Below, piece after piece: positions 12,901 to 15,381 of a stretch of 64,000 nucleotides of DNA; within the stretch, counting starts at the first letter, position 1, and each line of letters opens with the position of its first letter. The DNA lies in the NCBI GenBank assembly GCA_027315405.1, contig DAHUYB010000071.1:19336-83335 (forward strand), given 5' to 3'. Under the pieces are notes generated by a model that saw only the letters and a list, made by a program, of their open reading frames with translations, was not told the origin of the DNA and did not search any database. The position numbers were made by a program, and so were the translations under genes. This DNA is from Gammaproteobacteria bacterium (GTDB lineage Bacteria; Pseudomonadota; Gammaproteobacteria; Natronospirales; REEB76).

Positions 12901-14251
12901 CACCATTTTAGTCGCGCCGGACAACGGTGCTACCGCTGCTATGACGGTGACGCTGACACCGGGTGGTACCGGAGTACTGCAAACAAACGGGACATCGCAG
13001 AATTTCAGCACTACGACACCCGGCCAGACAGTGACCATGACCTTTAACGGCACTACCGGTCAAAATCTCGGTCTTGGCATTACCAATATCGTGCTTACTG
13101 GCGCCACGGGTCGCGTAGACATCGCCATATTCAATCCAGATGGCACTACTAACTACAATTTTGGCTGTATCGGTGATTCCATCAACGGCCTCAGTTGCAA
13201 TCTGCTGAACCTACCGCAAACGGGCATCTATACAATTATCGTCGCTCCGCCATCTCAAGCGACAATAAGTTATACGGCCACACTTTCTCAGGACGTATCG
13301 GGGACATTGGCTGTAGGGACACCGACGAACATCAATTTGGCATATCCCGGGCAAATCGGTTTGCCCAGCTTCACCGCTGCCGCTGGCCAGTATCTTGCCG
13401 TTCAAATAACGGGGTTCAGCACCAACCCATCCGGCGGTAGTATGAGCGTTGAGATTAGTAACCAAAGTGGTACGGTCATCGCGCAGTATGACATAAGTTC
13501 CAGCTACACCTTCAACCTTACAAATCTAGCCACCGGAACGTATTTTATATTGCTAGAGCCAGACAATGCGCAAACTGCGCAGATGACAGTGAATCTGTTC
13601 ACGATACCCACTCAGTCGATGGGTTCATTGGATCAATCGGTGAATTATTCAACCACAACTCCAGGCGTCGGACTAGCTCTGACATTTTCCGGCACTGCGG
13701 GGGAGGCCTTGGGGCTCGGAATTACCAACGTCACTACCAATCCAGCATCTACTGATGTCTATCCAACGGTATACGGACCGAATGGGAGTACCGTTGCTAG
13801 TGGGGGCTGTACGTCAAGTATGGCCATTTGCGCCATTACGATGAAGAGTCTACCTCAAACAGGCAATTACACAGTGCTGTTCGTGCCCTACGGCCAAGCG
13901 ACTATGAATTTTACGGCCACCCTTTCACAGGATGTGGCCGGTACGCTAACCCTGAATACACCTGTAACGGAGAATCTTCTCTACCCCGGGCAAAATGGTT
14001 TGTTTACATTTGTGGCCACGGCGGGTGAGAACCTGGTCCTTGAAGTTCAGGGTATAGCCACAAACCCAGCGAACAAGGACCTTTGGATGTATATATATAG
14101 CCCGAGTGGCAATCTAATAGCGACAAACTATGCGAATTATACTGTCAATTTTAACCTCACAAACCTCTCAGCTGGCACTTATTCCGTGCTCGTGTTCCCG
14201 TATTTTAACGACGTCGGAACTGCGTCATTTCAGCTGGATTTGGTGCCGTAG
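9908..14251 (+). CDS. Giant secreted/surface protein: signal peptide, YD repeat, 4 IPT/TIG-like domains and about ten PPC-like beta-sandwich modules
   Basis: 1447-aa ORF with a G-rich SD-like run upstream of ATG 9908 (GTG 9980 is an alternative start). Signal-like segment ILACILLLIGLWPGVCYA and YD repeat YMYDANGRLVAVTAPDGSSVVYKYDAAGNILSI. IPT-like units include FAPAQGAVGAQVTLQGSGF..NTVEFNG..QLVVKVPA.ATTG.ISVTV. The recurring module end is LPQTG(T/I/N)Y(S/T)VIVAP. GC is lower (about 52% on a sampled line) than the flanks. Confidence 0.85.
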   Translation: MGSGDDHVRAARFACAKGGLCPIVVIRPEFRTRSRKILACILLLIGLWPGVCYASNYMYDANGRLVAVTAPDGSSVVYKYDAAGNILSIQPIAVGQLALFDFAPAQGAVGAQVTLQGSGFSTTISNNTVEFNGTVASVTSATANQLVVKVPASATTGLISVTVGTTTVNSANDFVVLLAPEITSFNPAFGSSGTAVTISGRGLDPVPEGTSLTLANVDVPITSFSNSQLLFSVPADVGSAPIHVTTPYGQASSSTDFIVIPDVIGAVNVVSAGYVVANSSARTLNINSQNKSGVFAFTGTVGHWLSLQLTSLTTTPSGGVVSYQVYSTNNTQATQIAYGTVSTASNMSVHLPEIPVTGIYLIVFDSGNDTVQLTGSLKIDTSVATTGTPVLLSTTTAAQSIRFTFSGSSGLNLGSITNLALNPTSVVDALITINNPDGTLDSSEVCYVSYGGCELNINNLPTTGTYSVIVSPDGAAKLSFDAALFPVHVGTLAIYWFAPQQGTIGSQVMIAGYGFSTTTSNNGVEFNGVPAVVISATSSQLVVTVPAGATTGPISVTVSGTTVTSTNKFGVVSVPPPPIITGFTPGIGSAGTSVTVTGTTLDPVSGSTTLSLAGTTVPLTSISNTQAIFTVPANVYSGPIQITTPYGQASSNIDFVVGTGTGTGADNTSSIAELSVGSAATSLNITAYTYGIFALNATAGQWLSVQLDSLVTTPIGATVPYEVYTPDGTLFAVGSVSTLSTGTSGLSVDLSEKNAIDMSIHLPEIPTSGTYLVIFWPNDPAAVQLSAVLEANPTIESNDAELVLTTNTPAQTKRFIFSGTTGESLDLSITNLLFNPSFVAYGSYQLYQPDGSYGNGGFCNSSSAGGCNLQYLNMPYLPQTGTYSVIVAPGVSQTELTGSATFNATATLVPNVTATLSANTPFNLNLAQPGQEGVLTFTATANESLQLALSGVSTTPADTNIQIDVYAPGGFPNSPPIDSYNINSDGTQSLAGLAAGNYTILVAPDNGATAAMTVTLTPGGTGVLQTNGTSQNFSTTTPGQTVTMTFNGTTGQNLGLGITNIVLTGATGRVDIAIFNPDGTTNYNFGCIGDSINGLSCNLLNLPQTGIYTIIVAPPSQATISYTATLSQDVSGTLAVGTPTNINLAYPGQIGLPSFTAAAGQYLAVQITGFSTNPSGGSMSVEISNQSGTVIAQYDISSSYTFNLTNLATGTYFILLEPDNAQTAQMTVNLFTIPTQSMGSLDQSVNYSTTTPGVGLALTFSGTAGEALGLGITNVTTNPASTDVYPTVYGPNGSTVASGGCTSSMAICAITMKSLPQTGNYTVLFVPYGQATMNFTATLSQDVAGTLTLNTPVTENLLYPGQNGLFTFVATAGENLVLEVQGIATNPANKDLWMYIYSPSGNLIATNYANYTVNFNLTNLSAGTYSVLVFPYFNDVGTASFQLDLVP

Positions 14252-15381
14252 TGATAACGCACCGGACAATTCTGCGCATGGTGACTTTGGGAACCACTCT
14301 AAGTCTTGCGTTATTTTCATTGAATCTGTTCGGTCAAGAGTATCCAAACAAAGTGGTGCTAGGTCGAGCGCTGTTTCAGGACCGGAATCTGAGCCTAGAT
14401 CGCACGGTAAGTTGTGCGTCGTGCCATCAAGTTGATCACGCGTTCGCAGATTCGCGCTCGGTATCAACCGGTGTCGACGGTCGCCGGGGTACCCGCCATG
14501 CGCCAAGCTTGCTGAAAATTGGCGAATACCGGTCCTTTTTTTGGGATGGTCGTGCGACCACGCTTGAACAACAAGCGCGCCTTACCATGTTCTCGACCGT
14601 AGAATGTGGGTTTTCAAGTGGCGCACAAGTTGTCGAGCGTGTTGAGCAGAATTCAAGTTATGTCCATGCCCTTTTGACCTTGGATAAGTCAACCTCTCGT
14701 CGCATCACAATTTCTGATGTCACGGACGCTATCGTCGCTTACGAACGATCATTGGATGCGCCGCGCAATGCCTTGGATCGTTATCTCGCTGGAGATAAAG
14801 CTGCATTATCGCTCTCCGCGCGCCGCGGCCTTGAGGTGTTCAGCGGCAAAGCCGACTGTGCTGCGTGCCATGTAATTAGCGGGCGAAATGCCCCACTCAC
14901 CGATAACCAATTCCACAGTTCGAGTGTGGGTTTGGCTGCCATTGCGCGGAACCTCGCTGCCCTCGCTGCTGAAGTGGCACACATGAACCGGACAGAGCGC
15001 TTCCAGAAGATAGGATCGGACGATCAGATCGCGGCCCTAGGACGCTATGTGGTCACACTCAACCCGCAGGACATCGGCAAGTTCAGAACGCCGTCGCTCA
15101 GAAATGTGGCGCTTACCGGACCCTACATGCATGACGGCAGTGTGGCGACCCTCACCCAGGCGGTTGATCTGGAACTGTATTACCGCGGTATTACCCTCGG
15201 TCATCCGATTCTGCTATCTCCGACCGACAAGCGGGATTTGCTGGTGTTTCTGCATAGCCTTTCCTCGTTGCCGAAACAGAGACAGGCGCTTGTGTTCATT
15301 AAATTTACCGACAGCCGGCACGCAGGAAGCAGACCAGACCTCATTGAGCACATTCAGGCACAGCCGGGGAGAGGGCCATGA
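14251..15381 (+). CDS. Di-haem cytochrome c peroxidase / MauG family protein
   Basis: The GTG start overlaps the upstream TAG (TAGTG). It has a signal peptide, two CxxCH haem motifs (CASCH, CAACH) and the family block [24 protein letters not shown]. Confidence 0.9.
   Translation: [376 protein letters not shown]

Follow-up and report, generated by a model that had tools for sequence, protein, structure and literature searches.

A di-haem protein with a MauG-type ligand signature, encoded beside secreted Rhs toxins, is a candidate modifier of its partner proteins

We analyzed a 64,000-nucleotide stretch of DNA from a Gammaproteobacteria bacterium (GenBank assembly GCA_027315405.1, contig DAHUYB010000071.1, positions 19,336 to 83,335 of the forward strand; hereafter the window) in which a gene for a predicted di-haem c-type cytochrome, open reading frame 2 (ORF2), lies between two giant ORFs. 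Our analysis favors, at a little better than even probability, the reading of ORF2 as a periplasmic oxidase of the MauG type, which would modify the neighboring Rhs/TIG proteins before their export. ORF2 would then be an accessory enzyme dedicated to one Rhs toxin system, exported through Sec and type II secretion and made up of ORF1, ORF3, and ORF4. The genes of this cassette are as follows.

ORF1, 9908..14251, plus strand: secreted partner of 1447 residues with YD (RHS) repeats, IPT/TIG, and PPC domains (Pfam, NCBIfam).
ORF2, 14251..15381, plus strand: predicted MauG-type di-haem c-type cytochrome of 376 residues (CCP_MauG).
ORF3, 15378..20609, plus strand: predicted Rhs/teneurin-like polymorphic toxin of 1743 residues with a Sec signal (Pfam, NCBIfam).
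ORF4, 20603..20890, plus strand: protein of 95 residues with two predicted transmembrane helices, overlapping the ORF3 stop.

ORF2 begins at a GTG codon (14251) whose first base is also the last base of the ORF1 stop codon (TAG, 14249-14251), and its own stop codon (TGA, 15379-15381) overlaps the ORF3 start codon (ATG, 15378) by 4 nucleotides, giving ATGA at 15378-15381. The public gene call for the same protein (P0001) has 367 residues and starts at an ATG at 14278, in which case the upstream gap is 26 nucleotides. We consider the GTG start at least as likely because the ATG start drops the positively charged n-region; read from the GTG, the protein has an H/R/R n-region, a hydrophobic core, and then ...NLFG/QE, which on inspection is the more canonical signal peptide. 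Residues are numbered here from the GTG, and subtracting 9 gives the public-call numbering of our alignment (A1) and AF2 model. The translation carries CASCH at residues 55-59 (nucleotides 14413-14427), CAACH at residues 203-207 (nucleotides 14857-14871), and a third conserved block of the PYMHDG type at residues 278-297 (nucleotides 15082-15141), and it matched the Pfam family CCP_MauG (PF03150) with an E value of 2.4e-44 and 152 bits against a gathering cut-off of 25.6, far beyond chance. A preliminary description of this DNA had reported the two CxxCH motifs, the 278-297 block, the signal peptide, and start/stop overlaps with both neighbors, and all of these were confirmed by ORF calls, translation, and sequence inspection. 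By these features ORF2 is predicted to be a Sec-exported di-haem c-type protein. A promoter and terminator scan gave matches at or below the shuffled expectation and was therefore uninformative on operon structure.

The best match of the ORF2 sequence in the PDB was MbnH (6e1c, 6.5e-37), alongside YhjA (9qdt), with weaker matches to canonical bacterial cytochrome c peroxidases (BCCPs, approximately 1e-32), MauG (approximately 1e-20), and BthA (approximately 1e-14). MbnH and MauG were also the top two NCBIfam models, in that order, and both scores were far under the cut-offs (180.8 bits against 362.85 for MbnH, TIGR04039, and 150.7 bits against 443.85 for MauG, TIGR03791), which places ORF2 outside the MbnH family and outside MauG proper. 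No mauA or mauB gene was present among the window ORFs scanned, the neighbors of ORF2 being TIG and Rhs proteins, and no MbnP-type match was obtained with Pfam or NCBIfam in ORF1, ORF3, or the other neighbors of ORF2. The residues of the Pseudomonas aeruginosa cytochrome c peroxidase (PaCCP) were mapped onto ORF2 from their HMMER alignment. Six key positions were kept, namely H59 (PaCCP His55), W98 (Trp94), Q108 (Gln104), E118 (Glu114), H207 (His201), and H294 (His261), with a P-haem motif of C55-x-x-C58-H59 and an E-haem motif of C203-x-x-C206-H207. The catalytic Glu and Gln and the inter-haem Trp of canonical BCCPs are thus present in ORF2, and W98, Q108, E118, and both CxxCH motifs were found in 118 of 118 ORF2 relatives (at least 41% identity). 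Since they are common to MauG-type enzymes, E118, Q108, and W98 do not discriminate between the two classes. The Trp98 does set ORF2 apart from BthA, in which a Ser lies between the haems.

The two classes differ in the E-haem ligands, which are His-Met in canonical enzymes and His-Tyr in MauG-type enzymes (PMC11892367). The position of PaCCP Met275 is occupied in ORF2 by Tyr311 in the HMMER alignment, there is no Met in the E-haem ligand helix of ORF2, and Met is also absent at positions 310 and 311 among the 118 relatives. As a MauG reference we used that of Paracoccus sp. TOH, taken from its mau cluster, which matches the literature positions H35, W93, Q103, P107, E113, W199, H205, and Y294. 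Read from the alignment end-points, Y311 lies opposite MauG Tyr294, and in a MAFFT alignment Y310 falls in the column of the Tyr that MbnH and Methylobacterium MauG have; the candidate ligand pair Y310/Y311 corresponds to nucleotides 15178-15183. The surrounding E-x-Y-Y-R motif was nearly invariant in the relatives (E308 in 118, Y310 in 116, Y311 in 112, and R312 in 111 of the 118). At the other haem, the distal His71 of PaCCP, which closes the resting peroxidatic haem, is replaced by Val76, and no conserved His was found in the distal-His loop anywhere in the ORF2 clade (118 relatives). On the E-haem ligand criterion ORF2 falls with the MauG-type group, with a candidate Tyr ligand, and its sequence is not that of a canonical peroxide-detoxifying BCCP.

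The phylogeny gave a similar division. In a neighbor-joining tree of 116 sequences, all Rhs-linked enzymes fell into one clade of 19 tips that was separated from PaCCP, PpCCP, and YhjA with a bootstrap of 93/100, and the nearest group to this clade contained MbnH. Two of the 19 tips were not marked as linked: L047, a 1.5-kb contig with no flank, and L049, a 2.7-kb contig with a weak Rhs N-terminal match at its edge that we count among the linked loci below. The preliminary description had named tight clustering with canonical BCCPs and retention of their catalytic signature as results that would speak against its proposal of a protein-modifying enzyme. ORF2 instead stood on the other side of the 93/100 split, with Tyr/Tyr in place of Met275 and Val in place of the distal His71. 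ORF2 also has an extra helical insert of approximately 35 residues after the second CxxCH. No fusion of CCP_MauG with TIG, Kelch, or Rhs was found among the best 150 representatives. Other fusions were seen among close relatives in the 50%-cluster library, where P0121, P0123, and P0136 join a carbon-nitrogen hydrolase to two CCP_MauG units and P0150 joins one to a single unit, in proteins of 745-1393 residues, and P0141 joins a WD40 propeller to CCP_MauG; these proteins belong to other uncharacterized sub-families.

The linkage of ORF2-type genes to the two giant partners was examined in other loci by context look-ups and by searching every fetched locus with ORF1 and ORF3 (tblastn). A genome scan with ORF2 alone returned mostly distant paralogues, and L001-L003 alone were useful. 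Among di-haem genes with the E-x-Y-Y-R motif (39-66% identity) and usable flank, 17 of 17 loci encoded an ORF1-type and/or ORF3-type protein (L001, L002, L003, L031, L033, L034, L037-L043, L048, L049, L050, and L058). They came from Acidiferrobacterales-like Gammaproteobacteria, Casimicrobiaceae, Pseudomonas sp. PDM07, two Burkholderia plasmids, a Burkholderiales metagenome-assembled genome, and two Xanthomonas. ORF1 homologues adjoined the di-haem gene in 15 loci, and a small gene stood in the ORF4 position behind the Rhs gene in L031, L037-L040, L043, and L092. At least four gene orders were found among the linked loci: TIG, CCP, Rhs in the window, L031, and L037-L039; CCP, TIG, Rhs in L040; a Kelch protein, CCP, a TIG/FG-GAP protein, and Rhs in L041, where the Kelch protein is a separate one of 520 residues; and CCP divergent from TIG-Rhs in L001-L003, L042, and L043. 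The ATGA overlap between the di-haem and Rhs genes recurred in L031, L034, L036, and L037. From the gene overlaps, the preliminary description had inferred a functional coupling of ORF2 to its neighbors, and this inference is strengthened by the occurrence of TIG and/or Rhs genes at all 17 loci despite the shuffled order, and by the DyP-type enzymes that take the place of ORF2 in Streptomyces, described below. Directly upstream of the cassette in L040 (Pseudomonas sp. PDM07, GCA_014852395.1, positions 5224-8788) are genes for an OLD-family TOPRIM ATPase and a UvrD-like helicase, a pair that looks Gabija-type, so that this CCP-TIG-Rhs cassette appears to sit in a defence/competition island.

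Three linked loci also have, next to the cassette, a complete operon for a dedicated type II secretion system (T2SS). In L042 (Burkholderia ambifaria plasmid NZ_CP086300) and L043 (Burkholderia sp. PAMC 26561 plasmid NZ_CP014311), the di-haem gene heads this operon (GspG, F, E, secretin, and pseudopilins), and in L050 the order is T2SS, CCP, TIG. The T2SS adjoining the cassette in L042 and L043 suggests a private T2SS for the Rhs toxin on these conjugative plasmids. No T2SS genes were found among the large ORFs of the window. Of approximately 90 loci with other CCP_MauG clades (mostly ...DHYNKGG, with Tyr at +14), only L092 had the partner set; L108 had a single weak Rhs-core match (118 bits) approximately 3.5 kb downstream. 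The order in L092 is a TIG fragment, Rhs, a gene of 150 residues in the immunity position, and CCP, and because its CCP branches elsewhere in the tree, this locus looks like a separate recruitment.

A different haem peroxidase accompanied the same toxin family in Streptomyces. When ORF3 residues 1-700 were compared with plasmids by tblastn, two Burkholderia plasmids matched over the full length and five Streptomyces plasmids matched over residues 368-700 (L127-L131: NZ_CP120993, NZ_CP109396, NZ_CP109117, NZ_CP108530, and NZ_CP137525). All five Streptomyces loci encoded a giant protein, then an immunity-type gene, then a DyP-type peroxidase (PF20628/PF04261). Four of the five giant proteins start with the same two YD repeats as ORF1, those of L127 and L130 also have TIG domains, and they run on into an ORF3-like CarboxypepD_reg/DUF6531/Rhs arrangement. 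The toxins are of the YD-TIG-...-DUF6531-Rhs-PT-HINT type; the Kelch and Big_5 part is absent. The L130 protein is split by IS3, and L128 lacks the TIG part and has the DyP. Because ORF1-type and ORF3-type proteins are fused in Streptomyces, the two are expected to work together, and the presence of a DyP there implies that the toxin family retains the chemistry of a haem peroxidase and not one particular protein fold. The DyPs have 303-350 residues, are 54-89% identical to each other, and mostly lack an obvious signal peptide. From these sequences, the link appears to be one old association that has persisted through the divergence of the toxin ends and the immunity genes. DyPs carry a GxxDG motif; the Streptomyces proteins read ...FTEGFGNP... 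at the expected site, and their distal Asp may be replaced by Glu.

These results bear on the simplest alternative, that ORF2 is an ordinary peroxide-detoxifying BCCP that lies in a toxin island by chance. The retained catalytic Glu, Gln, and Trp, a Foldseek search in which BCCPs and YhjA came out on top, and the public annotation of its relatives as "cytochrome c peroxidase" are all consistent with it, but it does not account for the missing Met ligand and distal His, the 93/100 split, the 17 of 17 synteny despite shuffled order, or the DyP found in its place in Streptomyces, and we regard it as extremely unlikely.

In the mechanism we propose for a partner-modifying ORF2, the protein would be exported by Sec and receive its haems, after which its five-coordinate haem would react with H2O2. 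The product would be a high-valent, bis-Fe(IV)-like state stabilized by Trp98 between the haems and by the second haem with its Tyr ligand, and long-range electron transfer would then oxidize one or more aromatic residues of the co-exported partner. This would resemble MauG, which oxidizes pre-MADH, and MbnH, which oxidizes a Trp of MbnP, a protein encoded next to it. The Rhs protein is favored as the substrate because it is the partner in almost every case and because of the ATGA coupling to its gene, and the likeliest site of reaction would be its TTR/FN-plug-like (TTR, transthyretin) module at residues 377 to approximately 700. A hydroxylated, quinone, or cross-linked residue would result, and the partner would need it to be stable, to assemble with ORF1, or to be active once exported by the T2SS. 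Shell maturation and surface tethering, which the preliminary description suggested, are speculative outcomes of such a modification. We infer which protein is the substrate, what chemistry it undergoes, and when this happens relative to export. The module has the following position.

Conserved N-terminal module of ORF3, 16506..17477, plus strand: residues 377 to approximately 700, common to the Streptomyces DyP-linked Rhs proteins.

This module and the shell are the sole parts present in every Proteobacteria and Streptomyces case. When 12 proteins drawn from the two phyla were aligned, many positions within the module were invariant, including W493, W613, and several Tyr residues, and the module opens with an invariant W377-x-P379-x8-W388 directly after a low-complexity linker. 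Its AF2 model (pLDDT 83) is all-beta, a chain of beta-sandwich domains, and Foldseek gave weak matches (TM approximately 0.2) to the Bacillus anthracis TIE protein, teneurins, and Gram-positive pilins. We read the modeled module as no more than a probable Ig/transthyretin-like stalk that leads into the shell. The W377/W388 pair is, speculatively, a candidate target of the oxidase. A broader proposal, that this Rhs family needs a dedicated haem peroxidase (MauG-type in Proteobacteria, DyP in Actinobacteria) to install a Trp/Tyr cross-link or quinone at a site such as W377/W388, is a tentative one that we hold with less than even confidence.

Several observations weigh against a partner-modifying oxidase or against the generality of its link to the toxins. 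The E-haem ligand stands at +14 from the His of the PY(M/F)H motif in Paracoccus MauG, Methylobacterium MauG, Methylocystis MbnH, and PaCCP, while ORF2 and its relatives read ...AVDLE-L-Y-Y-R there, and an insertion of two residues puts their Tyr pair at +16/+17. ORF2 also lacks the hole-hopping Trp199 of MauG, having Ala there, and the Asn of the Ca site (PaCCP Asn79, MauG Asn66) is His83 (nucleotides 14497-14499); this position is Asn in 108 of the 118 relatives and His in ORF2 and 6 others. Monophyly of the Rhs-linked clade had a bootstrap of only 57/100. The AF2 model of ORF2 (pLDDT 91, pTM 0.85) matched BCCP, MbnH, and MauG structures in the PDB alike (Foldseek probability 1.00, TM approximately 0.67 for all three), and the fold is thus uninformative on class. 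As orthologues, the five Streptomyces DyPs count as one recruitment event and not five. Xanthomonas albilineans has an intact TIG gene and an Rhs gene that appears degraded. A word-indexed search with the Rhs module recovered three further loci that carry it (L132-L134), all on long-read metagenome contigs whose gene calls are fragmented. Neither Pfam nor tblastn detected a CCP or DyP in the 10 kb around them, even though L133 has TIG, Kelch, Big_5/DUF6531, and Rhs; the link is therefore frequent and not universal, or the enzyme may be encoded elsewhere. Finally, the ORF2 sequence was found in mine-drainage and soil DNA metagenome runs and no RNA run matched. A gene for an AhpC/1-Cys peroxiredoxin, another type of peroxidase, lies 4 kb upstream in L132 (5150-5779), probably by coincidence.

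A further explanation gives the peroxidase a helper role, either co-secreted or in the periplasm, in which its substrate is something other than the toxin proteins: it might remove H2O2 to protect the producer or the toxin during export, or oxidize the target surface for tethering or envelope breach. MauG-type enzymes and DyPs can both use external donors to reduce H2O2, BthA retains peroxidase turnover (PMC6405878), what is conserved across phyla is "a haem peroxidase" and not one fold, and in the two plasmid loci L042 and L043 the gene heads the T2SS operon and not the toxin operon. A helper is harder to reconcile with the periplasmic maturation of c-type di-haem proteins, with the lack of any mark of ORF2 as a T2SS substrate, and with the several Streptomyces DyPs that have no evident signal peptide and would be in a compartment apart from any target cell; in addition, the characterized Tyr-ligated family members act on the product of a neighboring gene. 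We consider a helper role unlikely. The position of the di-haem gene at the head of the T2SS operons in L042 and L043, together with a source community in mine drainage with fluctuating redox, would also fit a redox sensor or switch, with secretion or the activation of the toxin controlled by H2O2 or oxygen and no stable modification left behind. We judge this very unlikely, as no signalling domain or regulator is conserved beside ORF2-type genes, and we know of no CCP_MauG member that acts as a redox sensor or switch.

The architecture of the partner proteins is consistent with a secreted polymorphic toxin system. ORF1 has a signal-peptide-like start followed directly by two YD repeats (...RSRKILACILLLIGLWPGVCYA/SNYMYDANGRL), then four IPT/TIG and two PPC domains. 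ORF3 consists, from its N-terminus onward, of a signal peptide, Kelch-like blades at residues approximately 45-230, Big_5 at 241-331, CarboxypepD_reg (transthyretin-like) at 413-461, DUF6531 at 665-721, the YD shell, the Rhs-associated core at 1543-1618, and a Gly-rich tail at 1619-1743 (RHS_repeat, 3.6e-74; Rhs_assc_core, 7.2e-24). The core contains DPIGL...DPINL and reads ...SDPIGLAGGINTYAYVVNDPINL... before the 125-residue tail. ORF3 therefore has the YD shell, the core with DPxGL, the C-terminal tail, and the downstream small gene of Rhs polymorphic toxins, with toxicity and immunity as predicted functions. The tail includes the Gly-rich stretches GAGAGAGA and GGGFSIGIGAG (window 20232-20890 with ORF4). 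Neither the tail nor ORF4 had a Pfam match. ORF4 is likely an immunity protein, and from their sequences the tail and ORF4 look like a membrane-acting (pore-type) toxin and a membrane immunity protein.

The Kelch region of ORF3 raises one more explanation, in which ORF2 would be the redox partner of a Kelch domain resembling a copper radical oxidase, as in galactose or glyoxal oxidase plus peroxidase pairs. Such an oxidase/peroxidase pairing is known from GlxA and DtpA of Streptomyces. The Kelch region matched 6ryv/6ryx (approximately 1e-12), galactose oxidase (1e-6), and GlxA (4unm, 4e-5) in the PDB, and the Burkholderia homologue had a weak Glyoxal_oxid_N match; what these matches share is the repeat motif generic to Kelch blades. 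No Cys occurs in the first 660 residues of ORF3, so the defining Cys-Tyr cofactor cannot form, and the DyP-linked Streptomyces proteins lack the Kelch region. This is the least likely of the explanations considered, and a copper radical oxidase was rejected for the region on the missing Cys, the approximately four blades against the seven of such propellers, and its absence in Streptomyces. The approximately four Kelch-like blades at residues 45-230 (window 15510-16067) are too few for the usual Kelch propeller, and closure by oligomerization or by blades supplied by a partner are options.

The cassette lies in a low-GC island, with 51-59% GC over approximately 9.7-23 kb against 63-64% in the flanks. 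Two features mark its right side.

REP-associated tyrosine transposase (IS200-like), 21052..21774, plus strand: marks the right side of the low-GC island (Pfam, NCBIfam).
Fic-domain gene, 21969-23507: right edge of the low-GC island (window 9700-23500).

At 1571-7658, unrelated to the cassette, the window encodes a PD-(D/E)XK nuclease protein (902 residues) and a UvrD-helicase/PD-(D/E)XK protein (1131 residues), a pair that resembles AddAB/RecBCD-like recombination enzymes.

Among characterized enzymes, ORF2 is most like MbnH (6e1c), its best PDB and NCBIfam match and nearest named branch in the tree, with which it shares a Tyr after the PYMHDG-type block and an open five-coordinate haem. It differs in having no MbnP neighbor, in the shift of the Tyr by the two-residue insertion, in the helical insert of approximately 35 residues, and in partners, which are Rhs and TIG proteins of approximately 1,450-1,750 residues. 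With MauG it shares the His/Tyr-type E-haem signature and the equivalents of Trp93, Gln103, and Glu113, and MauG provides the precedent for long-range, H2O2-driven oxidation of a large partner protein; mau genes, an equivalent of Trp199, and the 19-residue MauG insert before Trp93 are all absent from ORF2 or its locus. BthA of Burkholderia (6nx0), another di-haem enzyme with a Tyr ligand, forms bis-Fe(IV) and has no known substrate (PMC6405878), but it has 477 residues, a Ser in place of the inter-haem Trp (Trp98 of ORF2), and a weaker match (1.9e-14). Canonical BCCPs (P. aeruginosa CcpR, 1eb7; Paracoccus pantotrophus, 2c1u; Escherichia coli YhjA, 9qdt) share the fold (TM approximately 0.67) and the two CxxCH motifs, whereas ORF2 has Tyr for Met275, Val for His71, and His for Asn79 and lies across the 93/100 split.

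On the toxin side, Bcn-A of Xanthomonas perforans, an Rhs bacteriocin with a Sec signal, is found in the culture supernatant and needs a T2SS and accessory genes (PMC7259588), and the T2SS dependence of an Rhs toxin thus has an experimental precedent. Like the ORF3 cassette, Bcn-A combines a Sec-signal Rhs toxin with a downstream immunity gene; unlike it, the accessory ORFs are small (100-290 residues) and no peroxidase or cytochrome is mentioned (PMC7259588). Bacterial teneurin-like proteins resemble ORF3 in having a YD shell that encloses the C-terminal toxin, with an immunity gene downstream, and the study describing them mentions no peroxidase, cytochrome, or Kelch (PMC13018210); teneurins were also among the weak Foldseek matches of the 377-700 module. 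In the open-access literature we found no paper linking Rhs/YD toxins to CCP/MauG or DyP peroxidases, and the pairing goes unmentioned in a polymorphic-toxin survey (PMC3482391), in PMC13018210 and PMC7259588, and in a CCP_MauG network paper (PMC6405878). One co-mention of Rhs and peroxidase, in a Leptospira transcriptome paper, concerned unrelated loci and was set aside. The MauG-type sub-family described here, with Rhs/TIG proteins as a new class of partner, thus has no prior description that we could find in that literature.

MauG-type enzymes with a known substrate are few (MauG and MbnH), and BthA has none, so a large clade with a genetically fixed protein partner would offer a new tractable MauG-type system. 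The assembly, export, and release of Rhs toxins outside the type VI secretion system are poorly understood, and if our reading is true, an oxidative maturase would be a new kind of accessory for Rhs/teneurin-like systems. On the broader and less probable proposal of a peroxidase needed by the whole family, these proteins would be the first enzyme-matured polymorphic toxin, and MauG-type enzymes would gain a new physiological substrate class. The association of two unrelated haem peroxidase folds with one toxin family argues that peroxide chemistry itself is under selection, which is directly testable in cultured Pseudomonas sp. PDM07, Burkholderia ambifaria B21-006, and Streptomyces spp., and suggests that the production or use of these Rhs toxins includes a peroxide-driven step not described before.

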